A stretch of 64,000 nucleotides of DNA from an uncultured delta proteobacterium (GCA_963827685.1 CAWHBU010000002.1:96001-160000); one strand, 5' to 3'; shown: positions 2,675 to 45,130, counted from the first letter of the stretch. The notes: generated by a model not told the origin, from the letters alone. Numbers and translations: made by a program.

Positions 2675-2740
2675 ATTCGCCCCCCTGCTACCCTGCCTAC
2701 CTTCAGGCAGGCGCAGGCAGGCATTGAATGAGGGTGCTAC
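2675..2740. repeat. REP-like palindrome (ATTCGCCCCC-ATTGAATG-AGGGTGCTAC) interrupted by a nested CCTGCC/GGCAGG element at 2684-2721
   Basis: Removing 2684-2721 restores a sequence matching the copies at 31486-31512 and 48120-48145 (reverse). Confidence 0.75.
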
Positions 2741-2770
2741 AATGTTCAAAATATATGGAGGAGATATTTG

Positions 2771-3766
2771 ATGGATCGTATTTTCAGCGGGATTCAGCCC
2801 TCGGGTGAAATTCATATTGGGAATTATGTGGGTGCCATCCGTAATTGGGCTCAATTAGTCAATCGCTATGACTGTATCTATTGTGTCGTGGACTATCATG
2901 CCATCACGATCGAATACGAAGTGGCATTATTGCAGAACAGAATCTTGGAAACGGCGACCATCCTCGTTGCTTGCGGTTTAACCCCTGATCGATGCAAGCT
3001 TTTCGTCCAATCCCATGTGCCTGAACATACGGAACTGGCGTGGATCTTCAACTGCGTCATGCCTGTGGGTGAATTGGAAAGGATGACCCAATTTAAAGAA
3101 AAAGGAAGACAGCATCGGCACAATGTCAATGTGGGACTGCTGGACTATCCGGTGCTACAGGCTGCAGATATTCTTATCTATAAGGCTGGGTATGTGCCGG
3201 TTGGAGAGGATCAAGTACAGCACGTAGAATTTTCAAGAGAGATTGCCAGAAAGTTCAATGCCCGTTTCGGAGATACCTTCCCAGAACCGAAAGTTGTTCT
3301 TTCCGATGCCCCGCGAATTCTGGGAACGGATGGAGGTGCCAAAATGTCCAAATCGTTGAATAACTCTATCGGGCTCTTGGATCCTCCAGAAATGATCTGG
3401 GAAAAGTTAAGAACCGCTGCAACTTGTGAACATAGACAGCGCCGAAGCGATCCAGGGCATCCAGAGCACTGCAATATCTTTACCATGCACCAGGCTTTTT
3501 CAAAGCCAGATCAGATTGCCTTTGTCGATCATCATTGTCGGACAGCTGGGATCGGATGTATCGAGTGCAAAGAGATCCTTTTTAAGAATATGATAGAGGA
3601 GATCGGCCCGATCCAGAGCCGTGTCAAAGAAATCAATCAAAACCCTCAATATATGATTGATGTATTGAAGTCGGGCGCAGCCCGATGCAAGGCCATTGCT
3701 GAAGAGGTGATGGACGAAGTGAGAGAAAAAATTGGTGTCAAATCAGGGTGGATGAGTCGAAGATGA
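2771..3766 (+). CDS. trpS: Tryptophan--tRNA ligase
   Basis: SGIQPSG, HIGN, YPVLQAADIL, VPVGEDQ, KMSKS; RBS GGAGGAG. Confidence 0.97.
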   Translation: MDRIFSGIQPSGEIHIGNYVGAIRNWAQLVNRYDCIYCVVDYHAITIEYEVALLQNRILETATILVACGLTPDRCKLFVQSHVPEHTELAWIFNCVMPVGELERMTQFKEKGRQHRHNVNVGLLDYPVLQAADILIYKAGYVPVGEDQVQHVEFSREIARKFNARFGDTFPEPKVVLSDAPRILGTDGGAKMSKSLNNSIGLLDPPEMIWEKLRTAATCEHRQRRSDPGHPEHCNIFTMHQAFSKPDQIAFVDHHCRTAGIGCIECKEILFKNMIEEIGPIQSRVKEINQNPQYMIDVLKSGAARCKAIAEEVMDEVREKIGVKSGWMSRR

Positions 3767-3769
3767 AAG

Positions 3770-4987
3770 TCATTCTTTTGAATGAGGAAGCTTGACGGTA
3801 ATTTCTTTTTTCCCACCTTGCCGGATGATCGTAAAGGTGATGTCGTTTCCCCAGCCTTTTTCCGAAAGGGCATGGTGAATTTCTTTTACTTCCTTAATTT
3901 CTATTCCCTCCGCGGCAATCAACTGATCCCCAGGGAGAAGGCCAGCCTTTTCAGCCGGGCTTCTTGAAAGCACTCTTTCAATCCATAATCCTTTTTGATC
4001 TTCCTTATTTTGTTTTAGGATAACACCAATTCTTGGTTCCTTTTTCTCAGGAGGATTTGGCTTTGTGATCCAGAGGAAATCAGCCAAAGGTGAAGAAGTT
4101 CCGGTAAAAGTGAAATCTTTGTCCAATTCTTTTGTCCATGCCTTTAAAACGATCGTTTTAAAAGAAACGGGTATCCTGCGATAAAGACGGTTTGGTATCC
4201 CAAAATCGAAGACGACGTGCCCACTGCCGGCAAATACGAATACGGTCTTTCTTTCTGCCCGGGAAGATTTGAGAAATTCAGAAAGAGACTCTGCCATGCC
4301 TTCATCCCAGAGGCATTGAGCCTCATAAAAGTATTCAAAATCTTTTGCCGAGCCTTTCTCATGACCTTTGTAAATGGAGGCGATATAGGCGCGATGTTGT
4401 TGATTCGTTAAGTCCAGTTCCGGAAGCTTCTTTCTATCTTCTGGAGAGAGCTTCAAAATCCCATTCTCGGCCACCTCCTTCACCAAATCCCTTGAAACGT
4501 TAAGACCGAGAATCTTGAGGTGGCGGCTTCTTGCTTCGTCGAGAATACCCTGATAAAGCTCATAATCCATGCCCCAAGTGGTGTCCCATTGGACTTCTTT
4601 TAGAAATTCTTCTTCGGTCAGAAGTCCTTGGCTCCAACGATCCAATATGGGTTGTTGAGACTTCTCAAACATCTCCATGCCTATCACAACATCCTTCCCT
4701 TTCGTTACAAGATCTTGGATCATTCTCACTTGAATCTGATGATGTTCGATTTGGTCATGGGATTCCCCTGCAAAAATGACCCTTGCCGTATTGAGATCAT
4801 TTAAAAGCTGTGTGAAGTTGATGGGGTCTCCTTCAGGAAGTCTGAGAATCTCCTCCGTTCCAACTGGAGTTTTAGTCATGGATATTTTTGAGACCCAGGA
4901 AGGGAGAGGTGTCTTCCCTACGCAACCGGGAAAGAAAACCCCACAAACCAGAATGAGCAACATCGGTAAGAAGTGCATTTTCATCAA
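3770..4987 (-). CDS. ChaN-family (heme/iron-regulated) lipoprotein with C-terminal PDZ domain
   Basis: Lipobox-like FFPGC; GESHDQ...HHQIQ...GMEMF; AQCLWDEGMA; AGSGHV; PDZ SPAEKAGLLPGDQL. Confidence 0.85.
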   Translation of the reverse strand: MMKMHFLPMLLILVCGVFFPGCVGKTPLPSWVSKISMTKTPVGTEEILRLPEGDPINFTQLLNDLNTARVIFAGESHDQIEHHQIQVRMIQDLVTKGKDVVIGMEMFEKSQQPILDRWSQGLLTEEEFLKEVQWDTTWGMDYELYQGILDEARSRHLKILGLNVSRDLVKEVAENGILKLSPEDRKKLPELDLTNQQHRAYIASIYKGHEKGSAKDFEYFYEAQCLWDEGMAESLSEFLKSSRAERKTVFVFAGSGHVVFDFGIPNRLYRRIPVSFKTIVLKAWTKELDKDFTFTGTSSPLADFLWITKPNPPEKKEPRIGVILKQNKEDQKGLWIERVLSRSPAEKAGLLPGDQLIAAEGIEIKEVKEIHHALSEKGWGNDITFTIIRQGGKKEITVKLPHSKE

Positions 4988-5178
4988 ATGGAGTATACCA
5001 TTCCATTTTCAAGAATTGAATGGATTTATTTGCCTTCTTGTAGAGATCATAAGAAAATGTTAATATGTTAATTACTTAAGCTTAAAAGATAGCATAAGGA
5101 ATTCTTAATGTCGGATCTTGCCTATTACCCATAGGCAAGCCTGCCTACCACGAACCGGTTCAAGACACGGATTGAGAA

Positions 5179-6597
5179 ATGTTAGTAAGGGGATCTCAGA
5201 GAAAAATTCTATTTTATATTACCCTACTTCTCGTCTCCTTCTTCGTCTTTGGAAGTTTCATAAGAGGGGCTTATGCCATGACGACGGAAGAAGAGAAGAA
5301 ATTGGGGAAAAAGGTCCTCCTCGAAATTGAGAGAGAGGCCGATTTCGTGAAAGACCTAAATGTTCAGGCTTTTGTCGAAAGGGTAGGTTCTTCCTTAGTG
5401 GATCAGGTGGGTTCCACTCCTTTCGACTTCAAATTTTATGTGATCAATGAACTGGATCCAAATGCCTTTGCCGTTCCGGGCGGTTATATTTTCATTAACA
5501 CGGGGCTCATTACTTTGGCAGAGAACGAACAGGAGATCGCAGGAGTGCTCGCCCATGAAATCTCCCATGTCACGCAAAGGCATGTCGCCCAGATGATCGA
5601 GAAATCGAAAAGGCTTAGCATTGCGACCCTGGGCGCCATGCTCGCCGGGATGCTTGCGGGCAGAGGTGGGGCAGGCTCGGCAGCGGCTGTGGCGATGGCG
5701 CAGGGCACAGCAGGGGCTCTTACATTGAAATATTCCCGAGAAATCGAGCAGGATGCGGATCAACACGGCTTGAATTTATTGATCAAAGCGGGCTACGACC
5801 CCGATGGGATGATAAACTTTTTTAAGAGACTCCAGAAGGTAAGCTTGGCCATGGCACCGAAGGTCCCTGCTTACCTTCTCAACCATCCAGCCATTGAAAA
5901 CCGAATTTCTCTCTTGGAAAACATTCTCCAGATGGGACCAAAGCCTACAGGGCCTTTCAAAACCTTTGAGAATTTCAACAAGATTCGTACAATGGCCTTT
6001 GTAGAGGAGAGAGAACCTCAGGGAGCCATCACCTATTTTCAGTCTCTGGTCGATGCCGATCCTAATCAATGGGAGGGATACTATGGCTTAGGCCTTGCCT
6101 ATCGGAAGATGGGGAGATTCGATAAGTCGATGGAAGTCCTCCAACAGGCCCACTCCTTGGCCCCTAAGGATCTTGACATTTCCAGAGAACTTGGCATAGT
6201 CTATTTTCTTTCGGGGAGGGTGGATCAGGCCATTGAGAACCTCGAGACCTTACGGTCCACTCCTGGAGAAGGTCAAAACAATGATCTAATGACTCTTTAT
6301 TATCTCGGGAGGGGATATCAGGAAAAAGGAGACTTTGCGAAAGCTCTCCCACTCCTTCTGAAGGTTCAAAAGGAGAAGCCTGAATTCACTGATATCTACC
6401 TCCACCTCGGATCTGTTTACGGAAGAACAGGGCAGAAGGGACTTTCCCACTTCTGCTTTGGGAAATATTTCAAGTTAAGGCGGGAGAGAAACAATGCCCT
6501 CCTTCATTTCAGAACAGCCATTGACTTGTTGGAGAGAGGAAGTCCGGAAAGGGAAGAAGCCCAAAGGGAGATCAAGGAACTCACGTCACCCCCATAG
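5179..6597 (+). CDS. M48-family zinc metalloprotease with TPR repeats (BepA/YfgC-like)
   Basis: Signal peptide; NAFAVPGG, AGVLAHEISH (HExxH), YSREIEQDAD, NHP; C-terminal TPR repeats. Confidence 0.9.
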   Translation: MLVRGSQRKILFYITLLLVSFFVFGSFIRGAYAMTTEEEKKLGKKVLLEIEREADFVKDLNVQAFVERVGSSLVDQVGSTPFDFKFYVINELDPNAFAVPGGYIFINTGLITLAENEQEIAGVLAHEISHVTQRHVAQMIEKSKRLSIATLGAMLAGMLAGRGGAGSAAAVAMAQGTAGALTLKYSREIEQDADQHGLNLLIKAGYDPDGMINFFKRLQKVSLAMAPKVPAYLLNHPAIENRISLLENILQMGPKPTGPFKTFENFNKIRTMAFVEEREPQGAITYFQSLVDADPNQWEGYYGLGLAYRKMGRFDKSMEVLQQAHSLAPKDLDISRELGIVYFLSGRVDQAIENLETLRSTPGEGQNNDLMTLYYLGRGYQEKGDFAKALPLLLKVQKEKPEFTDIYLHLGSVYGRTGQKGLSHFCFGKYFKLRRERNNALLHFRTAIDLLERGSPEREEAQREIKELTSPP

Positions 6598-6690
6598 TGG
6601 AATTTTAAGACACGGACAAAAACAATTTTTTTAAGAGGCGAGAGAAATAACAGAGATCAAAGGCGATCATCGGGTAAAGAGAGAGGTAAG

Positions 6691-7209
6691 ATGAAGCCGG
6701 TCGAGTTTTTTTGCAAGGAAATTTTAGAGATGGGGGTGGATGGAGCAAAGGTGATTGATCCTCGTTCTGTCGTCACTGCCGAATGGGTCAGGATGAAGTG
6801 TCAATATGGATGTCCTGGATTTGGGACGAGCCTTTGTTGCCCTCCGCACACCCCACCTCCGGACATCACACGGAAGGTGATCGATTCTTATCAAAAGGCT
6901 ATTTTGCTGCATCGCAGATTACTGAAAGGAGATAAGTCGAAGCCTTTTATCGAGACCATTGTGAATGTCGAAGTTAAGATTTTTCTTGATGGCTACTACA
7001 AAGCTTGGAGCATGGGTTCGGGTCCTTGCCGTCTTTGTAAAGAGTGCGACCTGACCACTTCTTGTAAACATGGTTTTGAAGCAAGACCTTCGATGGAAGC
7101 CTGTGGCATTGATGTCTTCAAGACCGCCAGGGACAACGGATTTCCCATTGAAGTGGTAAAGACTCATGAAGAAGAAAGAAATATCTTTGGATTGATCTTA
7201 GTGGAGTGA
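6691..7209 (+). CDS. DUF2284 family Cys-rich metal-binding protein
   Basis: VRMKCQYGC...CCPPH, GPCRLCKEC...C...ARPSMEACGIDV. Confidence 0.85.
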   Translation: MKPVEFFCKEILEMGVDGAKVIDPRSVVTAEWVRMKCQYGCPGFGTSLCCPPHTPPPDITRKVIDSYQKAILLHRRLLKGDKSKPFIETIVNVEVKIFLDGYYKAWSMGSGPCRLCKECDLTTSCKHGFEARPSMEACGIDVFKTARDNGFPIEVVKTHEEERNIFGLILVE

Positions 7210-7285
7210 TCGCGCTGTTCCCCGCGATAAAATTGGATGAATGGTCCAGGGCCTTGCGGATGAGGTCCTTGGGAGAGAGGATCGG

Positions 7286-9980: not shown

Positions 9981-10029
9981 TGGCCCAATAAGGTTCTTCT
10001 GGCTTTCGTGTGAGTGGCATCCCCCCTTG

Positions 10030-10078
10030 TAACCCCCCTTCATCCCCCCTTAAGTTAAGGGGGGATGAAGGGGGGTTA
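10030..10078. repeat. Perfect 24-bp inverted repeat (C6/G6-rich palindrome) between convergent genes
   Basis: TAACCCCCCTTCATCCCCCCTTAA-G-TTAAGGGGGGATGAAGGGGGGTTA. Confidence 0.9.
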
Positions 10079-18980: not shown

Positions 18981-19533
18981 TAAAATCGCATCTGAAAACC
19001 CCTTCCTGTGGACGGGGATGAAAGATGCGTCTGCTGAAGGCAGAAAAATGTGGTATATGAAAGTGCATGACTATCCGAAGAGCTGCTCACGCTGTCTATG
19101 ACACAAAATATCACTTGGTATGGGCGCCGAAGTATCGGAAATGGATTAAGAGACAAGATATCAGGGATAAGGCGCAGGAGATATTTGGAGAAGTTGCAGA
19201 AAATTATGGTTTTGACATTCAGGAGATGAGAGTGGCACCGGATCATGTTCATATATTCTTGAGTTTTCCGCCGAGATATTCGATTGCACGGGTAGTAGGG
19301 ATGCTGAAGAGTATTTCTGCGAGTCAGATATTTGAGGAATTTCCGGAAGTGAAGAAAGAGCTTTGGGGAGGGGAATTTTGGGAGGATGGGTATTTTGCGA
19401 GGACCGTGGGGGATAAAATCACGGCGGATTTGATCAAGCGCTACATCAAATATCATCGAGACGAGGTTCATGGTAAGCAACTAAAATTGTTTTAAGGGTT
19501 TTAAAGCCCCGCCTTGTAGGCGGGGTTCTTTAC
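18981..19533 (+). mobile_element. IS200-type element (IS200/IS605 family, tnpA only)
   Basis: Left hairpin CGCATCT...CCCC/GGGG...AGATGCG (18987-19029) preceded by TTTAT; right hairpin GCCCCGCCT-TGT-AGGCGGGGT ending TTAC; no tnpB. Exact ends are inferred. Confidence 0.8.
19067..19495 (+). CDS. tnpA: IS200/IS605 family Y1 HUH transposase
   Basis: HAVYDTKYHLVWAPKYR, DHVH (HUH), LWGGEFWEDGYFARTVG, RYIKY. Confidence 0.95.
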   Translation: MTIRRAAHAVYDTKYHLVWAPKYRKWIKRQDIRDKAQEIFGEVAENYGFDIQEMRVAPDHVHIFLSFPPRYSIARVVGMLKSISASQIFEEFPEVKKELWGGEFWEDGYFARTVGDKITADLIKRYIKYHRDEVHGKQLKLF

Positions 19534-19589
19534 TTCTGAGTCCGTCATCATTATTATCTTTTATTAGCAATACGGAGATTTAGATATTA

Positions 19590-20694
19590 TTGAGTTTCGC
19601 ATAAATAATGGAACGCTACTCTCTAGTCCATGGGAGATCAGAAGCATAGATGCATGACCGGAGGAGTTTCTGTGATTGCCTGAGTCTTCGTCTCGAGTTT
19701 CGAAGCATTTTCTTAAGATCATTTAGACTTTCCGGTACACTGTTGGACAAGGCACGGTCAGTCTGGTTCCAAACATACTCAGCCGGATTAAGCTCGGGAG
19801 CATAGGCCGGAAAGTATTCCATATGAATTCTAGGGTGCCGAAGAAGAAACTGTTTAACTTCCTTTCGCCGATGGATGGTGGCTCGATCCCACAACAGGAA
19901 CATGGGTCCCCTGATATGTTGGAGCAGTTCTTTAAGAAAAGACCGAACATCCAGACCGGTGAGGTTCCATGCCCGAAATCGGAGATAAAGGGCCAACCGC
20001 TTTCGTTTCGGGGAGACCGACAAAGCACTGATAGAGGAAATCCTATCCTGTTTGTACAGGTGGTAGAAGACAGGGGTTTTCCCTTTTGGAGCCCAGGTGC
20101 GGCGAATGTTTGGAATGAGTAAGAAGCCAGACTCATCAAGAAAGACCAGCTGGGCCCCAAGTCTTTTGGCGTTTTTTTATATGCGGCCACCGGTGAACCT
20201 TCCAATGTACGATCTCTTTGTCGTCCCTTTGTAACGCCCGACGCTCTGGTTTCTGACAACTCCATCCCATGCCCTGAAGCAACCGCCACACATGATTGGG
20301 GTGATACCGGATACGAAAGTGTTTCAGAATGGTTTGAGCGATCCGCTTCAATGTCCACAGATCGGTCCGATATCCTGCGGCCAGAGGACCCGCCAAAAGC
20401 AGTTCCGCTAACTTCTCTTTCTCGATTCGAGACAGCTTCGGAGGACGTCCTGGAATGGCCTTCGAGCGAAGGGCCTCCGATCCGCCTTCTTGGTACTGTT
20501 GAAACCATCGGAAGACTGAGCTTTTTGATGCCCCCACCGAACGCGCTATGGCCGAAAGACTGGCCTTGCCTTCTTTCAACAACGAAATGGCGCCTCGACG
20601 GCGCTTCTCCAGTTCCTCTTGGGATCCATGGGGTCTCATGCCCCATATTATAGCAGAAAAAGTTAAAACGTTCCATTATTTATGCGAAAGTCAA
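19590..20694 (-). mobile_element. IS630-family insertion sequence, copy 1 (1105 bp)
   Basis: Terminal inverted repeats TTGAGTTTCGCATAAATAATGGAACG / CGTTCCATTATTTATGCGAAAGTCAA, flanked by TA on both sides; second copy at 34733-35837. Confidence 0.95.
19616..20639 (-). CDS. IS630 transposase split into two ORFs (HTH ORF 20136-20639; DDE ORF entered at the A7 tract 20172-20178)
   Basis: HTH/winged-helix GRPPKLS...WTL...GWSCQKPERRA; the downstream frame gives VFLDESGF...WAPKG...LWDRATIH...PAYAPELNPAEYVW. Confidence 0.9.
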
Positions 20695-20784
20695 TAGCAA
20701 AGGAGGTGATGAGTGAAAAGGAGATCAGCACCTATGCTAAAATATGCGAGCTGAGATCAATAAGAAAGAAAGGAGGAGAATACA

Positions 20785-25883: not shown

Positions 25884-26056
25884 TCAAATCCCAAATCACA
25901 AATTCCAAATCCCAAATAAATCTCAATTTCCAAATCCAAATGACCGAAACGATTTTGCTTGAGATTTGGAGTTTGGCCCATTGGAAATTATTTGTAATTT
26001 GGCCTGCCTGTGCGAAGCCGCTTCGGCGAAGGCAGGTGCTTGGGATTTAGTGCTTA
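25884..26056. repeat. Heptamer-periodic inverted repeat with a 34-bp CCTGCC...GGCAGG insert (26003-26036)
   Basis: CAAATCC CAAATCA CAAATTC CAAATCC ... TTTGTAA TTTGG[insert]TG CTTGGGA TTTAGTG. Confidence 0.8.
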
Positions 26057-26096
26057 TCCCTCCTTTATCGATTGGCTAAAATATTGCGTTAAGGGA

Positions 26097-26570
26097 TTAG
26101 GCTTTAAACTTAAAGTCATCGGGATTGAGACTTTCGAGCCATTCCTTTAACTGATCTCCTTCTTTCTCCATATCGATGGTTCGCGCCTTTTCGATGACTT
26201 GTTCAGATACGAAAATCGGGGCGTCTACAGCCAGAGCGATGGCCATGGCATCGCTAGGACGGGAGTCGATGATAATCTCTTCTCCTCCTCGGTTAAGGTA
26301 AATCAAGGCATAGTAAGTATTTTCTTTCAGATCATTGACCACAATTTTCACCACCTGAAATCGAAGGGTCTTTAAGATGTTATTGATCAAATCATGAGTC
26401 GATGGTCGATGGGAGCCCATCTTCTTCAGTTTCATCGCGATGGCATTCGCCTCGAAAGGGCCGATCCAAATGGGAAGTCCTGTTTTATTCGATAAATCCA
26501 TCAGGAGAACGACAAATCCATTTGAGGTAGAATCAAACGTCAAAAACTTTACTTTCATCTCGAAATACAT
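26097..26570 (-). CDS. Bifunctional nuclease family protein (DUF151)
   Basis: LPIWIGPFEANAIA, RPSTHDL, IDSRPSDAMAIAL; start MYFEMKV after GAGAGG. Confidence 0.9.
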   Translation of the reverse strand: MYFEMKVKFLTFDSTSNGFVVLLMDLSNKTGLPIWIGPFEANAIAMKLKKMGSHRPSTHDLINNILKTLRFQVVKIVVNDLKENTYYALIYLNRGGEEIIIDSRPSDAMAIALAVDAPIFVSEQVIEKARTIDMEKEGDQLKEWLESLNPDDFKFKA

Positions 26571-26608
26571 CCTGCCTCTCCTTTCGTTCCTTTGGCCTTT
26601 GACTGGCA

Positions 26609-26776
26609 AGTGCCCCGTCCCGCCAAAGCGGGATAGGCGGGGTCCCTGCCTACCGGCAGGCAGGAAGGGGCACAATTAAAAAGATATTTCATTTGCTCGC
26701 TTTCCGCTCGCCACTACGTGTCCGGGAAGCCCCGGCGTGCCTGTCCCGTCCTGACGGGATGGCCGGGGAGCTTCAT
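26609..26776. repeat. Cluster of nested palindromes including IS200/IS605-end-like hairpins
   Basis: GTGCCCCG[TCCCGCCAAAGCGGGA]TAGGCGGGGTC[CCTGCCTACCGGCAGGCAGG]AAGGGGCAC and GAAGCCCCGG...[TCCCGTCCTGACGGGA]...CCGGGGAGCTTCA. Confidence 0.65.
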
Positions 26777-31485: not shown

Positions 31486-31512
31486 ATTCGCCCCCATAAA
31501 TGAGGGCGCTAC
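31486..31512. repeat. REP-like palindrome ATTCGCCCCCATAAATGAGGGCGCTAC (uninterrupted copy)
   Basis: Matches 48120-48145 (reverse) and the reconstructed 2675-2740. Confidence 0.75.
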
Positions 31513-32714: not shown

Positions 32715-32719
32715 CTCGC

Positions 32720-34510: not shown

Positions 34511-34732
34511 AAATTTTCCTCCGACACTGCTAAATTTCAAATCAGATTAACATAATGTTTCTTTTATTTCAATATCATGCATTTATGTGGCAGATAGTGA
34601 GGCAGAATAGATAGGCCATTCTATAATATTCTAACCTATTGAAATAATTTAAGAAATATTTTATGGAAAGAGGGAATCCCTTTTTTCTTGGAAAAAAGGT
34701 AGAAAGACTGCAGGGTTATGAGTAACTAGCTA

Positions 34733-35837
34733 TTGAGTTTCGCATAAATAATGGAACGCTACTCTCTAGTCCATGGGAGATCAGAAGCATAGATGCATGA
34801 CCGGAGGAGTTTCTGTGATTGCCTGAGTCTTCGTCTCGAGTTTCGAAGCATTTTCTTAAGATCATTTAGACTTTCCGGTACACTGTTGGACAAGGCACGG
34901 TCAGTCTGGTTCCAAACATACTCAGCCGGATTAAGCTCGGGAGCATAGGCCGGAAAGTATTCCATATGAATTCTAGGGTGCCGAAGAAGAAACTGTTTAA
35001 CTTCCTTTCGCCGGTGGATGGTGGCTCGATCCCACAACAGGAACATGGGTCCCCTGATATGTTGGAGCAGTTCTTTAAGAAAAGACCGAACATCCAGACC
35101 GGTGAGGTTCCATGCCCGAAATCGGAGATAAAGGGCCAACCGCTTTCGTTTCGGGGAGACCGACAAAGCACTGATAGAGGAAATCCTATCCTGTTTGTAC
35201 AGGTGGTAGAAGACAGGGGTTTTCCCTTTTGGAGCCCAGGTGCGGCGAATGTTTGGAATGAGTAAGAAGCCAGACTCATCAAGAAAGACCAGCTGGGCCC
35301 CAAGTCTTTTGGCGTTTTTTTATATGCGGCCACCGGTGAACCTTCCAATGTACGATCTCTTTGTCGTCCCTTTGTAACGCCCGACGCTCTGGTTTCTGAC
35401 AACTCCATCCCATGCCCTGAAGCAACCGCCACACATGATTGGGGTGATACCGGATACGAAAGTGTTTCAGAATGGTTTGAGCGATCCGCTTCAATGTCCA
35501 CAGATCGGTCCGATATCCTGCGGCCAGAGGACCCGCCAAAAGCAGTTCCGCTAACTTCTCTTTCTCGATTCGAGACAGCTTCGGAGGACGTCCTGGAATG
35601 GCCTTCGAGCGAAGGGCCTCCGATCCGCCTTCTTGGTACTGTTGAAACCATCGGAAGACTGAGCTTTTTGATGCCCCCACCGAACGCGCTATGGCCGAAA
35701 GACTGGCCTTGCCTTCTTTCAACAACGAAATGGCGCCTCGACGGCGCTTCTCCAGTTCCTCTTGGGATCCATGGGGTCTCATGCCCCATATTATAGCAGA
35801 AAAAGTTAAAACGTTCCATTATTTATGCGAAATTCAA
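34733..35837 (-). mobile_element. IS630-family insertion sequence, copy 2 (1105 bp)
   Basis: Same TIRs and TA flanks as 19590-20694; same translated HTH and DDE ORFs. Confidence 0.95.
34759..35782 (-). CDS. IS630 transposase split into two ORFs (copy 2)
   Basis: ORFs 35279-35782 and 34759-35166 translate identically to copy 1. Confidence 0.9.
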
Positions 35838-35843
35838 TAATAT

Positions 35844-36008
35844 TAAATGCCAAAGCTCAGATTTTGAAACAAAAGCTGAGGCTGACGTTAGAGTTAATAA
35901 GATTAAATTCCAAACTCTAGCCTGAGTCTTGGCATTCATTTGACATTTGCCTGGCTGCCCTGCCTACCGCAGGACAGGCGCAGGCAGGAATTTTGGCATT
36001 TGAAATTT
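35844..36008. repeat. Heptamer-periodic inverted repeat carrying a self-nested CCTGCC...GGCAGG insert (35950-35988)
   Basis: Left AAATGCC AAAGCTC AGATTTT; the right arm minus the insert reads TTTGACA TTTGAAT TTTGGCA TTTGAAA. Confidence 0.7.
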
Positions 36009-38087: not shown

Positions 38088-38108
38088 CGTTCACCCCCCA
38101 ACTGAATA

Positions 38109-38220
38109 AGTTCGGCGTGTTTAGTTCGGAGTTCGGAGTCAAAAAGGAAGACGCCACCCAAGAATTAGAAGTCATGATTTTATGTGTTTGCTCCGAACCC
38201 TGAACTCCGAACTCATAACT
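38109..38220. repeat. Heptamer-periodic inverted repeat (AGTTCGG / CCGAACT arms)
   Basis: AGTTCGG CGTGTTT AGTTCGG AGTTCGG ... CTCCGAA CCCTGAA CTCCGAA CTCATAA; same arms as 29142-29250 with a different spacer. Confidence 0.85.
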
Positions 38221-38221
38221 T

Positions 38222-39661
38222 TTAACTCTCTTCTTCCGAGATCAGCACATCTTTTTTGATGTGATACCTCTCCATCTTGCTGCGCAGCGTACTCCGGTTG
38301 ATTCCAAGAAGCAGGGCGGCCTGGACCTGATTCCCCTTGGTTCTTTGAAGGGCGCGGAGGATCAAACCTCTTTCCAAGCTGGAAATCATGTCCATATCCT
38401 GTGAGGTCGTCGGGGCATTTGAGAACTCTTCGAAGAGGGCGTCGAGGAGATCCTCAACATTTTTTTTCTTCAATTCCTCCTCAGCTTCTCGCTTCTCCAA
38501 GCCTTTTTCAAAAAGGAGTTGGTCTTCAAGAATCCATTCTCCTTGGCAGAGCACCATCGCCCTTTTCAGGACATTCTCCAATTGTCGAACGTTCCCAGGC
38601 CATCCATAGGAAGTAATTTTTTCCATGGCCGAAGGAGTTATTCCAACAATCCCCCTCTTCAATTCCGTGTTAAACTTTTTTAGGAAGTAGGAAACCAGTT
38701 CAGGGATATCCTCTTTCCTCTCCCTGAGGGGTGGAATTGTAATAGAGACCACATTGAGTCGGTAATAGAGGTCTTCCCTAAACTTTCCATTTGAAATGGC
38801 TTCCTCTAATTCTTTATTCGTTGCGACGATGAGCCGGATGTCCACCTTGATCGTCTCCATTCCACCCAGCCTTTCAAAGCTTTTCTCTTGGAGGACTCTC
38901 AATAATTTGGCTTGAGTGGAGAGGGACATATCACCGATCTCATCCAGAAAGATCGTCCCACCTTGACACTGTTCCAGTTTTCCAATGCGGCGAGAAGCAG
39001 CTCCGGTAAAAGATCCTTTCTCATGACCGAAGAGTTCGCTCTCAAGAAGGGTATCGGGAATGGCCGCACAATTGACCGGAAGAAAAGGTTGACTCGAACG
39101 GAGGCTATGATGATAGATCGCCCGGGCAACCAGTTCTTTGCCTGTCCCACTTTCACCTCTGAGGAGCACCGTAATATCGCTCGGGGCGACCTGGCCAATC
39201 ATTTTATAGATCTCCTGCATCTTGAGAGAAGATCCGACGATCCGTTCCTCCTCTCCCTCTGTATCAGCCAGAGGAGCATAGACGACTTCCTCTTTCATCA
39301 GTTTTCGCAATGTGAGGGCCTTTTCAACCAGCGCTTTCATCTGCGGAATAGGAAAAGGTTTTAGGATATAGTCGAAAGCCCCGTACTTCATGGCTTCGAT
39401 AGCGGTCTCGGTGGTCCCATAGGCCGTCATGATGATGACCAGAGATTTAGGATCGATCGATTTAATCTCCTTCAGTACATCAATTCCGTTTCGACCCGGC
39501 ATCTTAATATCCATGATGATGAGGTCAGGAGAGCTTTCTTTCACCCGATCCAATGCTTCTTCCCCATTCTGGGCGGTGAGGATGGAATATTTTCCCTCCA
39601 TCATCCGTTTCAGAGAGTATCGGATCGATTTGTCATCATCGACGATCAGGATGGTTTGCAT
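38222..39661 (-). CDS. Sigma-54-dependent response regulator (NtrC family)
   Basis: REC (LIVDDD...MDIKMP), GESGTGKE, ESELFGHEKGSFTGA, FLDEIGD, WPGNVRQL, Fis-type HTH; start MQTILIV. Confidence 0.93.
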   Translation of the reverse strand: MQTILIVDDDKSIRYSLKRMMEGKYSILTAQNGEEALDRVKESSPDLIIMDIKMPGRNGIDVLKEIKSIDPKSLVIIMTAYGTTETAIEAMKYGAFDYILKPFPIPQMKALVEKALTLRKLMKEEVVYAPLADTEGEEERIVGSSLKMQEIYKMIGQVAPSDITVLLRGESGTGKELVARAIYHHSLRSSQPFLPVNCAAIPDTLLESELFGHEKGSFTGAASRRIGKLEQCQGGTIFLDEIGDMSLSTQAKLLRVLQEKSFERLGGMETIKVDIRLIVATNKELEEAISNGKFREDLYYRLNVVSITIPPLRERKEDIPELVSYFLKKFNTELKRGIVGITPSAMEKITSYGWPGNVRQLENVLKRAMVLCQGEWILEDQLLFEKGLEKREAEEELKKKNVEDLLDALFEEFSNAPTTSQDMDMISSLERGLILRALQRTKGNQVQAALLLGINRSTLRSKMERYHIKKDVLISEEES

Positions 39662-39671
39662 CTTCTTCCTC

Positions 39672-41390
39672 TCATGAAATAGGGAGCCAAACCGTAAAGA
39701 GAGTTCCCTTCCCTGAGGCGCTTTCCACCTCAATTTTTCCATGGTGTTGATCAATGATTCGATGGGCGATGGAGAGGCCGAGGCCAATCCCGCCTTCCTT
39801 TGTAGAGAAGAAGGGGTCGAAGAGTTTATTCATATCTTCACTGGGAATACCGATTCCAGAGTCCTGAATGGAAAGTATTATCCAACGACTATTCTCTGAA
39901 ACCTGTCCCCTCAATGTCAAGTTGCCACCCTTTGGCATCGCTTGAACAGCATTTAATAAGAGGTTGAGAATGACCTGTTTCATCTGTTCACGGTCCACCA
40001 GAATAGGGGGCAAGATTTGGAATTCTTTTCGAACGTTGATTTGATGTTTCTCCATTTGAGGTCGAAGCAATTGAAGGGTCTCTTCAAAAAAGGAGAGGAC
40101 ATCCGCTTTTTCTAAAAGGGGAGGTGCCGGTTTGGCGAATCGAAGGAATTGGTCCACGATCTCATTGATCCGACGGATTTCCTCCTCGATGACTTTGAGA
40201 TCCTCACGATGGGCGCTTTCCGAAGGAAAATTCTCTGTCAAGGAATGAATGAGGATATTGATACTGGTGAGGGGATTTCGAATTTCATGAGCGATGCCTG
40301 CGGCCAATTGCCCTAAGGCAGCTAATTTCTCAGACCGAATCAATTGAGCCTCCGTCTTTCTGAGATCGGCGGTGGTCTTTTGAATCTTTTCTTCCATCTG
40401 CTGGCTGAAGGTCTTAAGTTCCTGATACATGAAGGCGTTGTAGATGGCCAAACCTGCTTGCTGCGCAAAAGCCATCACCGATTCGAGAGTCTCTTTGGTA
40501 ATGCTTTTATTGGGCTCGAGAAAGTCTGCGGCAATGGCTCCCAAAGCCTTTTCCTTCGCCAACAGGGGGACCACTAACAGAGAGTGAAGATTAAATTTTT
40601 CTCTTAAGAAGGGGTTGATCCTTGGATCTTGTCTTGCATCTGGGATGATGAAAGGTTTTCGCTCAAAAACCGATCTGGCCACAACACTGTCCTCTGGGTC
40701 TAAACGCAGCGCAATCCCTTTAATCTTGTCCTCGTCAATCCCTACAGCCATTTTGCATTCAAGAAAATTCCTCTTTTCGTTAATCAGATAGAGACGGGCG
40801 CGGTCAAACCCAATATTTTTTGTCACTCCTCCTAAAACCAGTCTGAGAATCTCTTCAACATCGAGGGTCCCCATCAAACCAGAATTATCAATACAGATAG
40901 CCGCCTGATTGGCAACCGTCGTGAGAATTTCCTCTTCGCTCTTCGAGAAGGAGTGGGGATAGGAGGTATAGCAATTGATCACGCCAATCACTCTGTCCTT
41001 AATGCACATGGGGACACTGAGCATGGAGACCAAGCCCTCCTTCTTGGCCAACTCTTTTTCTTTATAAAGAGGTTCTTTCAGAACATGAAGAATGGCCATG
41101 GGTTGATTTCGAAGGGCTACTTGGCCGACCACTCCTTCTCCTATAGCGAGACTTCGCTCCTTCAAATATTCTTCGCTGATGCTCTGGGTGGCCTTCAGCT
41201 TCAGCTTTTGATCTCTGTCATCGAAAATCCAAAGGGAACAGATCTTCGAGGCCATCAAATTGGCAGTGACCGTGACGATCAGTCGCAGGACATCTTCAAG
41301 GTAGAGACCGGAGGCAATGGCTTTGCTGATCTCCAGCAGGGCATTGATTTCTTTGGCATCGAGATTTCTTTTTCCTTTGGATAACTCCAT
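39672..41390 (-). CDS. GAF-GAF sensor histidine kinase (NtrB-like core)
   Basis: Two GAF regions, AHEIRNPL, NAVQA, DSGIGI, FDPFFSTK, GLGL; start after GGAGAGG. Confidence 0.92.
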   Translation of the reverse strand: MELSKGKRNLDAKEINALLEISKAIASGLYLEDVLRLIVTVTANLMASKICSLWIFDDRDQKLKLKATQSISEEYLKERSLAIGEGVVGQVALRNQPMAILHVLKEPLYKEKELAKKEGLVSMLSVPMCIKDRVIGVINCYTSYPHSFSKSEEEILTTVANQAAICIDNSGLMGTLDVEEILRLVLGGVTKNIGFDRARLYLINEKRNFLECKMAVGIDEDKIKGIALRLDPEDSVVARSVFERKPFIIPDARQDPRINPFLREKFNLHSLLVVPLLAKEKALGAIAADFLEPNKSITKETLESVMAFAQQAGLAIYNAFMYQELKTFSQQMEEKIQKTTADLRKTEAQLIRSEKLAALGQLAAGIAHEIRNPLTSINILIHSLTENFPSESAHREDLKVIEEEIRRINEIVDQFLRFAKPAPPLLEKADVLSFFEETLQLLRPQMEKHQINVRKEFQILPPILVDREQMKQVILNLLLNAVQAMPKGGNLTLRGQVSENSRWIILSIQDSGIGIPSEDMNKLFDPFFSTKEGGIGLGLSIAHRIIDQHHGKIEVESASGKGTLFTVWLPIS

Positions 41391-41498
41391 CTTCCTCTCC
41401 ATCATCCGCTCCCTTGAGGAACAGATAGGTGTGGGAATTTTATCTATCATAAACGAAAACCTATCTTTTGGAAAGTAAATTACCAAATCTTGGGGAAT

Positions 41499-41536
41499 AA
41501 AAAAGGGGATACCGGGTATCCCCGATATCCCCTTTT
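41499..41536 (-). terminator. Intrinsic terminator after the glutamate-synthase-family gene
   Basis: Minus strand GGGGATATCGGG-gata-CCCGGTATCCCC-TTTTTT. Confidence 0.8.
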
Positions 41537-41551
41537 GATCAACCATTCTGC

Positions 41552-43118
41552 TTAGCCAAGGATCTTATCCACTTCCTCTTGATCAGAATCCATCACATAG
41601 GGGATCCCGGAGATCTCAGCGGCCTTCCGGGTCAAGGCGCAGATGTCATTCCTCGAAATATATTTCAAGGCAAATTTTCTGGCTCCGGCCATCATCTGTT
41701 GAAGTCCTGCATTCAGACGATCAAAATAGGTGACCATTCCAATCGTCCCTGCAGGGATGCGTTCAAAGTCCTTCCCATATTTATCCTTCAGTTTAGCGGC
41801 CAAAATGAAGATGTGTTCCACATCGGTCCCAAATTTGGCTACATCCGCAGGGACTTTGCCTTTTTTGACCATCTCACCGATCGTATTTCCCACCATGGCA
41901 GCGGTCATCGAAGCTCGACCCAGGCAGATGGCTTTAATATAAGGAGCAGCCAGGGCGATGGCTTTGAAGATATGATCCTCTAGAGAACCCCCCTGCCATG
42001 GCACAAGCGGGGATGAACGCACCTTTTTGATCTAAGCGTTTCAGATATTGGTAGAGGAGACTTTCAAGGTACACCGTGGGGACTCCCCATTCGTTCATCA
42101 TCCGCCAGGGGCTCATCCCTGTTCCTCCTCCAGCACCATCCACAGTGAGAAGGTCGATCTTGGCATCCGAGGCATATTTGACGGCTCGGGCCAGATCCGC
42201 AGGCCGATAAGCTCCGGTTTTGAGTGAGACATATTTGGCTCCGATCTTTTTCAGACGCTCCACTTCCTTACGGAATCCCTCCTCATCCACCATACCCAGC
42301 CTGGAATGGCGTTCGAATTCTTTAAAATCTCCCTGTTTGAAAGCTTCCTGGATCACATGATCTTCAGGATCGGGGAGGACGATATAGCCCCGGCTCTTTA
42401 ATTGCAGCGCCCTCTCCAAGGTCGGGAGCTTGACTTCACCACCGATGTCTTTGGCCCCTTGTCCCCATTTCGGTTCGATAATCTGGACGCCCAACTTCTC
42501 TACGACATATTCCGGAACGCCGAGGCGTCCGTCTTCCACATTATATTGAACGACGATTCCCCCATACCCGTCATACCATTGCTGGAATGTCTTGACACGG
42601 CGTTCCATCTCTGGAGATCTGACCACGTGGCTATTCTTAAATTCAGACTTGGGATCCATACCACAGACATTTTCCCCTACGACAACCAGGGTTCCGGAGA
42701 TGGCTGCTGCAATCGCCATCGCTTCCCAATGAATCCGCGCGATATCGGTTGAACCTAAAGCGCCTGTAAAGTATGGGACCTTCAATTTAATCTTTTCTCT
42801 CGACCCAACTTCTGTTGACACGTCTACAGCCGGAAAGGTCGCACGGTCTGAATCGGCCGAGATACCGACCGCGCCCACACAAGTCCCCTGAATATTAAAA
42901 TGGGAATAATCGATGGGATAATCTTTCTCAGATCCTGCGGTCACCTTGGAAAACGGCTGGGGGTAGAGAATTTCCCTTCCTCTTAAGGCGGAACGACCCA
43001 CTTCACAAGGGCCTGGACACCCGTCCAGACAGGTCACACAAATCCCTGATATGGGAGCGGGTTCTACCCGATTTCGAGTAAAGGTCGCCGGACTACGATT
43101 TGGTTTGGTGAATGTCAT
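41552..43118 (-). CDS. FMN-binding glutamate synthase family protein (stand-alone, archaeal-type); one frameshift near 41981
   Basis: N-terminal CxxCxxxCxxxC, KWGQGAKDIGGE, LKTGAY, TVDGAGGGTGMSP; MAGGFS joins LEDHIFKAIAL...CLGRA in the next frame; RBS AGGAGGGGG. Confidence 0.9.
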
Positions 43119-43146
43119 ACTCCCCCTCCTTCTTAAGATGATTAAC

Positions 43147-43246
43147 AAAAAAAAGACGTCAAATCTCTTTGACGCCTTTGTCGTGTGAGATAAAATGGGC
43201 ACCGAACTTCTTCGACGCCCTTGTCTTCAATACATCTTCGTATTGA
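43147..43246 (-). promoter_or_regulatory. ANTAR-target RNA leader: three hexaloop hairpins and two tandem intrinsic terminators
   Basis: Minus strand: CAATAC-GAAGAT-GTATTG; GAC-AAGGGC-GTC overlapping terminator GGGCGTCGAA-gaag-TTCGGTGCCC-ATTTT; GAC-AAAGGC-GTC overlapping terminator GGCGTCAAA-gaga-TTTGACGTC-T8. An ANTAR gene lies immediately upstream. Confidence 0.85.
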
Positions 43247-43254
43247 TCGTTAAC

Positions 43255-43283
43255 TATTTAATATAATAAAATATTTTTGTCAA
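43255..43283 (-). promoter_or_regulatory. Putative sigma-70 promoter for the ANTAR leader
   Basis: TTGACA (43283-43278) followed at 16-17 nt by AT-rich TTAAAT/TAAATA, just 5' of the first hairpin. Confidence 0.55.
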
Positions 43284-43300
43284 GAATATTCTGAAATTGG

Positions 43301-44005
43301 TCATCCCCCCATTTTTTCTGTGAGGAGGATAGCTTCAGCGATCTCTCGCATGGTCTTTCGACTGTCCATGCTCGCCTTTCGAATCCTTTTAAAGGCCTCT
43401 TCTTCGCTCAAGTCATGGTGTTTCATCAAGGCTCCCTTGGCCCTTTCCACCAATTTTCGGGTCTCCAATTCCTCCTGGATCACCTTAGTCTTTACCATTA
43501 ATTCGGTATTCTCAATGCAGATGGCCGCCTGGTTGGCCACGGCTGTGAGGACAACTCTTTCTGTCTCATTAAATTCGTGGGGATAAGAGGTATAGCAATT
43601 GATCACCCCGATGACCTTATCTTTCAACGTCAAGGGGACACTGAGCATGGAGACCAAGCCCTCTTTTCTTGCCAATTCTTTCTCTTTGTAACGGGGTTCC
43701 TTCAAGACATTGAGGATGGCCAATGGTTTGTTTTCCTGTGCCACATAACCCACGACGCCCTCTCCTAATTTTAAAGTCCGTTCCTTGAGGTATTCCTCAC
43801 TCATGGTTTGAGTCGCCCTGATTCTGAGAACTTTCTCTTTTTCATCCAGTATCCAGAGAGAACAGATCGTTGAATCCATTACATTGGCTGTTACGGTTAC
43901 AATCAGCTTTAAGATGTCATCCAAATACCGGTCCGAAGAGATGGCTTGGCTGATTTCTGAAAGGGCTTGAATCTGTTTCTTGTAGGATGTCTTTCTATAG
44001 AGCAA
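43301..44005 (-). CDS. GAF and ANTAR domain-containing RNA-binding antiterminator
   Basis: GAF domain, then ELETRKLVERAKGALM...LSEEEAFKRIRKASMDSRKTMREIAEAIL (canonical ANTAR). Confidence 0.94.
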   Translation of the reverse strand: MLYRKTSYKKQIQALSEISQAISSDRYLDDILKLIVTVTANVMDSTICSLWILDEKEKVLRIRATQTMSEEYLKERTLKLGEGVVGYVAQENKPLAILNVLKEPRYKEKELARKEGLVSMLSVPLTLKDKVIGVINCYTSYPHEFNETERVVLTAVANQAAICIENTELMVKTKVIQEELETRKLVERAKGALMKHHDLSEEEAFKRIRKASMDSRKTMREIAEAILLTEKMGG

Positions 44006-44047
44006 TTAAGTACCTCCTTTCCTTACAATCCATTCAGCTACGCGGTA

Positions 44048-44076
44048 AATTTACACAAAAGATCGAAAGTTGTCAA
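44048..44076 (-). promoter_or_regulatory. Putative sigma-70 promoter for the GAF-ANTAR gene
   Basis: Minus strand TTGACA, 17 nt spacer, TAAATT. Confidence 0.55.
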
Positions 44077-44090
44077 CAAAGGTGGTTCCT

Positions 44091-44360
44091 TTTCCCGCCC
44101 CAGTTTTTGTGGTTCGCCAAGGGGACTAAAGGCATCCACCCAAGCCAGCGGATTCGAGATGAAGAAAAACTGGGGGTGGAGGACGGACGGTTTACTAAGA
44201 ACCTTCGGTAGTGTTGACCCGGGTAGGAGATTATGCTAAATCTGAACAGACAAACCGACACCGGGAGACCATGTGTGATACCCATCCGTCGAGAACAGGA
44301 AGACTGATTGAGAGAGTAACCCGGCAAGTGTGACCGTTAACGCGTTGGATCAGCATTTTT
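44091..44360 (+). ncRNA. Candidate structured non-coding RNA/leader of unknown class
   Basis: Helices: CCCCAGTTTTT(44098-108)/AAAAACTGGGG(44165-75), GACGGA/TCCGTC, CCGGGT/ACCCGG, GTGTTGAC/GTTAACGC; no long ORF. Confidence 0.3.
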
Positions 44361-44388
44361 CAATCTCGTGAAGAAGGAAGGAGACAAA

Positions 44389-45030
44389 ATGGATCCGGTA
44401 AAACAGTGGTGGGTTGAAGAGAAGGCAAGGAAGGCCGTTGAAAAACTGGTGGCTCATGATTTTAAGGCGATTTATGTTGGGACGAAAGAAGAGGCGGCTC
44501 AGGAAGTTTTGAAACACATCACTCCGAAGCAGAGAATAGGGATAGGTGGCTCCATGACTATAAGAGAGTCAGGGATTTTGGAAAAATTGGAAGCACAGAA
44601 TTATACTATTTATAACCATTGGAAGCCAGGGCTTTCAAGAGAAAGCATGCTCGAGATCAGGAAGTCGCAAATGACTTCCGATCTCTTTCTGAGCAGCGCC
44701 AACGCTGTCACTCTGAACGGAGAGCTGGTTAGTATTGACGGGATCGGGAACCGTGTCAATTCAACCACTTTTGGTCCCGGAAAGGTAATCCTCGTCGCCG
44801 GTTATAATAAGATTGTTGAAGATGTTCAAGAAGGGATCAAGAGGATAAAGAATGTGGCTGCCCCCCTTAACGCAAGGCGACTCAATATTGATGTTCCCTG
44901 TGCCAAGGTGGGAAAGTGTGTCGATTGTAATTCTCCCAACCGGATCTGCAGGGTGCTTGTTATCCTCGAACGAAAACCATCCTTGACAGATATCTTCGTC
45001 ATTCTGGTCGGAGAAGAACTGGGATTCTGA
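44389..45030 (+). CDS. LUD-domain (lactate utilization protein C-like) protein
   Basis: GIGGSMT, SSANAVTLNGELVSIDGIGNRV, VAAPLNARRL, C...CxxCxSPxRIC. Confidence 0.88.
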   Translation: MDPVKQWWVEEKARKAVEKLVAHDFKAIYVGTKEEAAQEVLKHITPKQRIGIGGSMTIRESGILEKLEAQNYTIYNHWKPGLSRESMLEIRKSQMTSDLFLSSANAVTLNGELVSIDGIGNRVNSTTFGPGKVILVAGYNKIVEDVQEGIKRIKNVAAPLNARRLNIDVPCAKVGKCVDCNSPNRICRVLVILERKPSLTDIFVILVGEELGF

Positions 45031-45032
45031 TA

Positions 45033-45130
45033 CATTGCGGATTTCGCCTGCCTTCGCCGAAGCGGCTTCGCGCAGGCAGGGAATTCGGATTTCGGATTCT
45101 ATTCCGCAATCTGCATTCCGCATTCTAAAA
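45033..45130. repeat. Heptamer-periodic inverted repeat with a 34-bp CCTGCC...GGCAGG insert (45047-45080)
   Basis: ATTGCGG ATTTCG[insert]G AATTCGG ATTTCGG ... TCCGCAA TCTGCAT TCCGCAT; the insert is the reverse complement of 26003-26036 with one mismatch. Confidence 0.85.

Follow-up and report, generated by a model that had tools for sequence, protein, structure and literature searches.

The window analysed here is a stretch of 64,000 nucleotides from an uncultured delta proteobacterium (G000:C2:96001-160000, G000 being its 5.23-Mb draft genome of 14 contigs and ~47% G+C). It carries five copies of very short inverted repeats that begin with CCTGCC and end with GGCAGG, at 2684-2721, 26003-26036, 26645-26664, 35950-35988 and 45047-45080, all of which the initial annotation had located correctly. 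The pattern CCTGCC-N(4-30)-GGCAGG matches five times in the window, compared with a mean of 0.07 in 100 shuffled sequences, none of which reached five. The copies belong to two repeat families, here called F20 and F34, which are very probably inserted modules, as comparison of filled and empty sites across the genome suggests.

The first copy (2684..2721, no strand assigned) is a composite element with an outer 18-nt shell, CCTGCTAC...CGCAGGCAGG, itself a degenerate version of CCTGCCTACCGCAGGCAGG, the 19-nt form, and an inner 20-nt F20-like copy (CCTGCCTACCTTCAGGCAGG, 2692-2711) placed between TAC and CGC of the shell; when folded, the whole forms a hairpin within a hairpin (-10.3 kcal/mol, z -2.4). 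It splits a repetitive extragenic palindrome (REP) on the plus strand (2676..2740, TTCGCCCCC...G(A/G)GGG(C/T)GCTAC type), and its excision yields TTCGCCCCCATTGAATGAGGGTGCTAC. As previously proposed, the uninterrupted REP of the same type at 31486..31512 (+), which has no insert, represents the empty copy; this REP type is found uninterrupted about 24 times (48 both-strand matches) and, as TTCGCCCCC...GGGGGCGCTAC, flanks a RAYT gene at G000:C6:428147-428668. The second composite element (35950..35988, no strand assigned; hairpin -14.6 kcal/mol, z -3.4) sits within a TTTGNNN heptamer array and has the shell CCTGGCTGC...CGCAGGCAGG with an inner 20-nt copy, CCTGCCTACCGCAGGACAGG, at 35959-35978. 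Both cases of a copy within a copy are thus real, and a third example with the same architecture was found at G000:C1:16278.

Two further copies are F34 elements in heptamer arrays. The copy at 26003..26036 (+) differs from the consensus by C9T and lies at ...ATTTGG|TGCTTGG... (the bar marks the junction) in one arm of an inverted pair of arrays, its joined flanks having 21 empty paralogs (hairpin -10.6 kcal/mol, z -3.3). The copy at 45047..45080 is the exact consensus on the minus strand, placed at ...GATTTCG|GAATTCGG... in a GGATTTC/GGAATTC array, with 31 empty paralogs of the joined flanks; between its reverse complement and the 26003 copy there is a single difference, T/C at position 9, as noted before. 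The arrays, intergenic 7-nt repeats at 25900-26060 and 45080-45130, form inverted pairs able to fold into long hairpins between genes, and at orthologous positions the heptamer differs completely between species of the genus. The remaining copy (26645..26664) is an F20 whose canonical strand, CCTGCCTGCCGGTAGGCAGG, is the minus strand, located between GGCGGGGTC and AAGGGGCAC of a ~130-175-nt repeat; its joined flanks have 35 empty paralogs. This host repeat (26598..26775, no strand assigned) belongs to a PATE-like family resembling miniature inverted-repeat transposable elements (MITEs), with ~40 copies of 130-175 nt in the genome, and is missing at the orthologous place in one relative (G003) and in one metagenome locus (L055). 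Its hairpin CCCCGCCTTGTAGGCGGGG is the right-end hairpin of an IS200/IS605-type insertion sequence (IS) present in the window, and in this family the right-end-like hairpin (CCCCGCCTTGTAGGCGGGG + TTCTTTACT), which recurs from that three-copy IS, lies on the opposite side from a left-end-like hairpin.

F20 (CCTGCCTGCCGGTAGGCAGG, 20 nt) also occurs in a fully symmetric form, CCTGCCTGCCGGCAGGCAGG, and in short forms of 15-19 nt, while F34 (CCTGCCTGCGCGAAGCCGCTTCGGCGAAGGCAGG, 34 nt) has a 20-nt interior between F20-like ends. Common to both are the ends CCTGCCT...AGGCAGG, a 7-bp terminal inverted repeat around a short, slightly asymmetric interior, and each element as a whole is one hairpin of 20 or 34 nt, not two different subterminal hairpins. 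The two strands of F20 fold unequally (G.T wobble, -7.0 kcal/mol, vs A.C mismatch, -6.1 kcal/mol), in which F20 resembles hairpins that are read strand-specifically. A genome-wide census with blastn-short at ≥85% identity gave 102 loci for F20 and 64 for F34, in total 166, and the two families are the commonest 14-mer-based repeats of the genome; exactly 34 nt is the length of 55 F34 copies, and 32 of these are identical. Only 33 of the 166 copies lie in open reading frames (ORFs) of ≥120 aa, mostly at ORF ends, although such ORFs cover 83% of the genome, and the other 133 lie outside them. Where two copies lie close together, the genes that they enclose are of ordinary housekeeping types.

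Longer forms with the same ends have variable interiors of 15 to ~66 nt, and these interiors are other small hairpins; different small hairpins nest in one another in all combinations. One metagenome contig (L049) has, at the exact position of F20 in the ortholog of 26645, a 39-nt form in which the hairpin CCCCGCCCTCGGTCGGGACCGGGG replaces most of the F20 interior, and similar cargo-bearing forms are found at G000:C2:459580 and G000:C7:28916. The F34 interior was considered as an independent element and ruled out, as 35 of 38 core occurrences lie within CCTGCC...GGCAGG and two of the other three are degenerate F34 copies. A larger transposon with CCTGCCTGCC at the start of its terminal inverted repeats might also have left F20 behind, as a footprint or as a remnant with zero cargo, which would fit the composition of F20 from two 10-nt inverted halves and the ends that the longer forms share with F20. 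However, split half-sites 75-4000 nt apart in the genome, by a crude half-site definition, gave nine candidate pairs and no transposase-carrying unit, and neither the missing target duplication nor interiors made of other small hairpins agrees with such an origin, which we find scarcely credible.

Insertion was assessed by removing the element exactly at all 166 loci, joining 16+16 nt of flank and seeking an ungapped match across the junction elsewhere in the genome. The joined flanks matched another place for 127 of 166 copies (F20, 70/102; F34, 57/64), compared with 17 of 300 random fake excisions and 28 of 166 excisions shifted by 7 nt. The earlier observation that excision restores the host, made on the window, was hereby borne out genome-wide, with the copies at 26003, 26645 and 45047 among those restored. 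In the ~130-nt repeat family that hosts the 26645 copy, five of 20 aligned members hold, at the same point as there, F20 between GGCGGGGT(C/T) and AAGGGGCAC, while 15 are empty and otherwise show no difference; three of the five inserts have one orientation, one the opposite, and one is the symmetric form. In a ~190-nt family, the site GGGCTG|GGG exists in three states, being empty in two members, filled by F20 in two and by another composite hairpin of ~100 nt in two, with flanks otherwise alike. Counting by regular expression gave ~29 empty and six filled members for the REP-A host (GTAGCGTCGGCA...), ~34 and 14 for the CCCTCTCC...GGAGAGGG hairpin host, and 29 and ten for the PATE-like family. 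No base is duplicated or lost in any filled/empty pair, and the absence of target duplication thus holds. Together, these comparisons argue strongly for insertion, though they are entirely paralogous, and they support the proposal of 20-40-nt non-autonomous hairpin modules that would enter palindromes, heptamer arrays and one another without target duplication.

In canonical orientation, the base at -1 is G in 34 of 50 exact F20 copies and 36 of 48 exact F34 copies, and the base at +1 is G in 45 of 50 and 31 of 48, followed by a purine at +2. Beyond this G|G and the purine at +2 no preference was seen, an IS200/IS605-type 4-5-nt target having been tested, and self-nesting at CCG|GTAGG or TAC|CGC likewise corresponds to G|G on one strand. 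Moreover, the orientation of the elements is constant relative to several asymmetric host repeats.

The two families differ widely in distribution. Of 24 genomes from the family of G000, 20 have F34 at up to three mismatches, among them 14 of 14 in the genus, as against none of 16 from outside the family; with up to two mismatches, it occurred in four of 301 genomes in an even sample of the phylum, of which one, holding a single copy, lies outside the family, and it was present in one viral contig. F34 is thus nearly confined to this bacterial family. The persistence of the same F34 consensus in 20 of 24 genomes, while the orthologous intergenic DNA cannot be aligned, speaks, together with the 32 identical copies in G000, for ongoing activity or strong constraint. 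F20 was likewise found in 21 of 24 genomes of the family and in none of the 16 relatives outside it, but an exact search of one genome per species returned at least 122 stretches against ~2 expected by chance in 596 billion bases. Hosts among the matches listed include Nitrospirota, Chloroflexota, many Patescibacteria of the candidate phyla radiation (CPR), Bacteroidota (including cultured isolates), Omnitrophota, Planctomycetota, Gammaproteobacteria, Bdellovibrionota and Ignavibacteria, and F20 was additionally found in 55 stretches of viral contigs. Winogradskyella echinorum, Olivibacter oleidegradans and Flagellimonas yonaguniensis are among the species listed as carriers. The symmetric and the asymmetric form are each found repeatedly, at least 79 and at least 45 times in genomes and 42 and 14 times in viruses.

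The contexts of F20 elsewhere are those seen in G000, namely heptamer arrays, hairpin loops (one of them terminator-like) and self-nesting, the latter at five loci (L166, L171, L204, L210 and L256), and the five unrelated genomes checked hold 50, 28, 16, 12 and two copies. In one viral contig (L305, 256-347), F20 lies in the variable loop of a tRNA-Met, for which ARAGORN predicts 92 nt with F20 and 72 nt after its removal. In a Chitinophagaceae genome (L355, G055:C145), F20 is found in frame within an ORF at 110-631 on the minus strand, where it contributes about seven extra residues (..LPAGRQG..); from its sequence we take this ORF to be lumazine-synthase-like.

Considering these results, we lean, if only slightly, towards the view that F20 and F34 are very small non-autonomous mobile modules of the kind known as small dispersed repeats (SDRs) in Nostocaceae, moved by hairpin-recognising strand transfer. 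A copy would be inserted as a precise unit, no base of the target being duplicated or lost, usually at NG|GR in repetitive DNA such as REP loops, other small hairpins, heptamer arrays or the loop of another copy, and copy number would rise further as host repeats multiply with their passengers. The exactness of the blocks, the missing duplication, the shared stem, the strand asymmetry of the hairpin and the G|G junction together suggest that the hairpin is recognised when folded in single-stranded DNA, with strand transfer at the foot of the stem. The hairpin might fold in single-stranded DNA and be recognised and cut at the stem foot, and a strand-transferase acting in trans might then join it to single-stranded DNA that is exposed, a route that we propose tentatively as possible. 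HUH-type chemistry appears the most plausible for such a transfer, while every concrete candidate enzyme failed its test.

Several observations weigh against this reading, of which the first concerns copy number. All six aligned members of one repeat family carry F34, so that part of the copies reflects hitch-hiking, and the 13 largest flank clusters account for 113 of the 166 copies. Both would be expected if the elements were not mobile themselves and a few ancient insertions had been amplified by MITE, PATE or REP hosts, with gene conversion producing the filled and empty forms. The 166 copies, however, represent 66 distinct flank contexts, 53 of them unique, which implies many independent events and makes hitch-hiking alone insufficient; both orientations at one site, self-nesting, and the same 20-mer in unrelated host repeats, unrelated phyla, a tRNA and protein-coding genes also speak against amplification by hosts alone, which is very unlikely. 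In addition, the preference for hairpin loops is weak: after excision, the junction lies in a predicted loop (minimum-free-energy folding) in 56 of 166 cases, compared with 191 of 996 shifted and 42 of 166 random positions (19-25%). The suggestion that the elements favour structured DNA is accordingly only modestly borne out by folding, while the insertion into other repeats and the G|G junction are strong. Orientation of F20 and F34 in G000 shows no link to gene strand, nor to the sign of GC skew in 100-kb windows (Fisher p 0.77 for F20 and 0.55 for F34), a proxy for replication strand on a draft genome, and this lack of bias sets them apart from IS200/IS605 elements. Furthermore, G000 is 94.5% complete and 8% contaminated and most relatives are also metagenome-assembled, so that repeat counts are approximate.

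Orthologous comparison belongs to the same side of the balance. Across a 20-kb stretch, genes of 14 other species of the genus align at 75-95% identity while the intergenic DNA consists of unrelated repeat content, and no orthologous empty/filled pair was shown, the intergenic DNA of species-level relatives being unalignable. Among 80 metagenome loci compared around a nuclease-domain gene (26100-26570), the nearest (L047, 96% identical in the gene) is without F20 plus ~320 nt, L048 has F20, and L049 has its 39-nt variant at the same point; F34 is present in none of the three, and their heptamer arrays differ throughout. This comparison is suggestive but not a clean empty allele. Four public sequencing runs (X1-X4) gave, on the 20 kb, short contigs of near-identical populations that break at 45047/45080 and at other repeats. 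Populations at more than 98% ANI to G000 are, as the runs indicate, present in sediment, peat and wetland samples. X3 and X4 contain a joint in which 25969-26034 is replaced by 31 other letters (25 letters on the shorter side), which may stem from a related population or a paralog.

The search for a mobilising enzyme provided the remaining counterevidence. The initial annotation had tentatively linked the elements to HUH enzymes, and in its explicit form this explanation holds that F20 and F34 are REP-like substrates of a genome-encoded HUH Y1 enzyme (IS200/IS605 TnpA or RAYT), excised as single strands and re-inserted into single-stranded DNA. The absence of target duplication, the imperfect strand-asymmetric hairpins and the insertion into loops fit such chemistry, and G000 has 25 Y1_Tnp matches, comprising 18 copies of an IS200-like element, three of the window TnpA element and four divergent RAYT-like genes. 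Y1_Tnp is also present in 38 of 50 F20-holding genomes of other phyla vs six of 14 unmatched control genomes. The predicted TnpA gene in the window (19067..19495, +; Pfam Y1_Tnp, E 2.9e-40, three identical copies) does encode a true Y1 transposase, but its suggested connection to the elements was not supported, as its three copies (window, G000:C2:1198244 and G000:C4:880192) have their own unrelated end hairpins and contain no CCTGCC.

Across 46 Y1 genes, namely 26 RAYT-like genes in G000 and 12 relatives and 20 Y1 genes in seven F20-holding genomes of other phyla, none is flanked on both sides by CCTGCC elements, and hairpins of their own lie close to many of these genes and, for several, on either side. 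A single copy lies within 500 bp of two of the 46, one with a 19-nt form nearby (L129) and one in a Chitinophagaceae genome with F20 23 nt past the stop codon (L330), the latter counting in favour of an HUH link. Close orthologues of the RAYT occur in four of 14 other genomes of the genus (G004, G008, G009 and G012; 75-88% identity, same REP flanks), though 14 of 14 carry F20 and F34, and two genomes with elements (G005 and G011) give no RAYT-like match. In 12 of the 50 F20-holding genomes of other phyla Y1_Tnp was not found, including a 2.3-Mb chromosome and three isolates. Considering in addition the missing GTAG head, the apparent lack of a defined 4-5-nt target, the lack of replication-strand bias, and that the two separate ends, left and right, of IS200/IS605 elements cannot come from one hairpin of 20 nt, we regard mobilisation by such Y1 enzymes as unlikely.

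Two observations concern the Y1 elements themselves. The RAYT locus at G000:C6:428147-428668 is a classical REPtron, a 174-aa RAYT-like gene between two GTAG-headed REP types (GTAGCGTCGGCATT..AATGCCGACG and GTAGCGCCCCCAT..GGGGGCGAA). The IS200-like element, very compact at 545 bp, occupies 18 places (e.g. C4:636157 and C1:267672), 16 of them identical over ~545 bp, and each copy contains a Y1 transposase frame of 163 aa together with an CCCCGCAGCTCTGCTGCGGGG end hairpin of its own, which points to recent activity.

A GIY-YIG nuclease of the Ssn type was also considered as mobiliser and rejected, as none of the four small GIY-YIG genes of G000 is flanked on both sides by F20/F34. Ssn-like homologues (E 1e-6) are found in none of four element-rich genomes (G019, G020, G008 and G005) and are present in two element-free ones (G016 and G038). 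The suggested co-occurrence with RAYT, IS200 TnpA or GIY-YIG genes thus showed no association, and the mobiliser is neither the nearby TnpA, nor RAYT, nor the Ssn nuclease, which narrows the search for the enzyme. As separate observations, a single-domain GIY-YIG gene of the Ssn type (G000:C5:121198-121488) is flanked on one side by GTCATTCCCGCAGAAGCGGGAATCCAG, a hairpin nearly identical to the Neisseria NTS consensus, and on the other by a CCTGC variant of the same NTS-like hairpin, and a 66-nt unit, AAGGCTTCGGTTGGCAAGCCATCCTATTTAGCCGACGAAGCTTTGATAAAAGCGCAGTTGGCCGCC, repeated in tandem at least five times (G000:C3:1158370-1158750), stands directly upstream of an 80-aa GIY-YIG ORF.

Identical 20-mers across phyla fit poorly with a co-evolving dedicated enzyme, and genes for Y1 or GIY-YIG proteins were found in none of five viral records that hold several copies. 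Together with the lack of any dedicated enzyme found, these results would fit a capture driven by the site, in which G runs by hairpins and heptamer arrays would break or stall during replication and stable hairpin-forming single strands or ectopic templates would be copied or ligated in by general replication and repair enzymes; any abundant stable hairpin could then spread, and the same 20-mer would be workable in any phylum. One site that takes unrelated hairpin modules, the nesting of small hairpins in all combinations and the same 20 letters across phyla and phages agree with it. On the other hand, template switching guided by 1-2 nt of homology would hardly yield precise blocks of 20 and 34 nt whose ends never vary over 66 contexts. 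Conservation of the asymmetric variant and a constant orientation with respect to several host repeats also speak against it. We also know of no such pathway established in bacteria, and consider site-driven capture distinctly unlikely.

A speculative reading, unlikely in our estimate, would have F20 spreading within and between phyla and phages without an element-specific enzyme, via a universal replication or repair activity that would insert the folded hairpin at G|G where single-stranded DNA is exposed, with F34 and the cargo-bearing forms as lineage-specific descendants that keep the 7-bp ends. Mobile DNA is usually thought to require at least two protein-binding ends. Were this reading true, F20 would be the smallest and most host-independent mobile DNA known, and a general source of intergenic hairpin growth, in-frame protein insertions and extra tRNA arms.

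Returning to the favoured reading of mobile SDR-like modules, nothing described comes closer than the small dispersed repeats found in Nostocaceae, set alongside by description and not by sequence. Elhai et al. 2008 reportedly described SDR4-6 of Nostoc punctiforme and relatives as associated with heptamer repeats and nested in one another, and we know of no enzyme assigned to SDRs. F20 and F34 share with SDRs the precise insertion into short repeats without duplication, the self-nesting and the occupation of heptamer arrays. An SDR is, in part after PMC4390886, a dispersed repeat of ~20-30 nt that is precisely inserted in other short repeats without duplication, and SDR4-6 are, in part after PMC4390886, PMC5861425 and PMC3116915, likewise ~20-27 nt long, hairpin-forming, dispersed and mostly intergenic. 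In contrast, PMC5861425 places SDR-like repeats nowhere outside Nostocaceae among HIP1-rich cyanobacteria, whereas G000 belongs to a non-photosynthetic anaerobe and F20 ranges over many phyla and phages; two size classes sharing one pair of termini are a further difference. The initial annotation had proposed a candidate for an undescribed system, which does not hold for the behaviour, as it matches that of SDRs, but agrees with the sequences, as the F20 strings and their translated peptide words were not found in the literature full text searched, which excluded supplements.

Other known systems resemble the elements less. REP/RAYT and REPIN sequences have in common with F20 and F34 that they are, according to PMC3116915 and 10.1101/279083, short imperfect extragenic palindromes whose copies number from tens to hundreds and which presumably act as hairpins of single-stranded DNA. 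F20 and F34, however, begin directly with the stem CCTGCC and have no 5' GTAG (GTRG) head, the only GTAG lying inside the F20 loop region, whereas the true REPs of G000 (GTAGCGTCGGCA... and GTAGCGCCCCC...) have it. No cognate RAYT is flanked by F20 or F34, and the real REP/RAYT unit of the genome uses other palindromes, which are hosts for F20; the elements insert into REPs and are not REPs. IS200/IS605 and PATE elements are similar in the absence of target duplication, the dependence on hairpins and the use of single-stranded targets. IS200/IS605 elements need distinct left and right subterminal hairpins and a defined 4-5-nt left target and show lagging-strand bias, whereas F20 is a single 20-nt hairpin for which G|G appears to be the only target, and it shows no strand bias. 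Classical MITEs derived from DDE transposons differ in that F20 and F34 have inverted termini yet no target-site duplication. The NTS/SRM repeats of Ssn, as described in Chenal et al. 2025 (PMC11893778), are 20-50-nt hairpin repeats, orientation-specific, rarely in genes and present in hundreds of copies, but the SRM motif given there, ATTCCCGC-N-GCGGGAAT plus a conserved portion upstream, is matched by neither F20 nor F34. Ssn itself (GIY-YIG, cd10448) is a single-strand nuclease, with no joining activity shown.

SDR-type behaviour is thus already known, and F20 and F34 differ from the described cases in a host outside Nostocaceae, in their shared termini and in the occurrence of F20 across phyla and phages. 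In its behaviour F20 resembles a mobile DNA element, one that would be among the smallest known, and a clean-inserting, self-nesting unit of 20 nt with the same letters from Bacteroidota, CPR, Planctomycetota, Nitrospirota and Proteobacteria to phages suggests that the mobilising activity is either very widespread or unrecognised. Such elements would reshape intergenic hairpins such as terminators and REPs and seed layered repeats, and in other genomes F20 extends proteins by seven residues or gives a tRNA an additional arm. With ~166 copies, two size classes sharing one pair of ends, and several well-defined hot sites, G000 is well suited to a search for the enzyme.

Other features of the window can be summarised briefly. 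An Rfam search of the window matched no family, and for a neighbouring gene a BFN domain was confirmed by comparison with a protein atlas. Additionally, a 1.1-kb insertion sequence is present at 19588-20696 and 34728-35842, with at least six identical copies genome-wide; its two ORFs show HTH and DDE-like motifs, and it is presumably an IS630-type transposase split by a frameshift.

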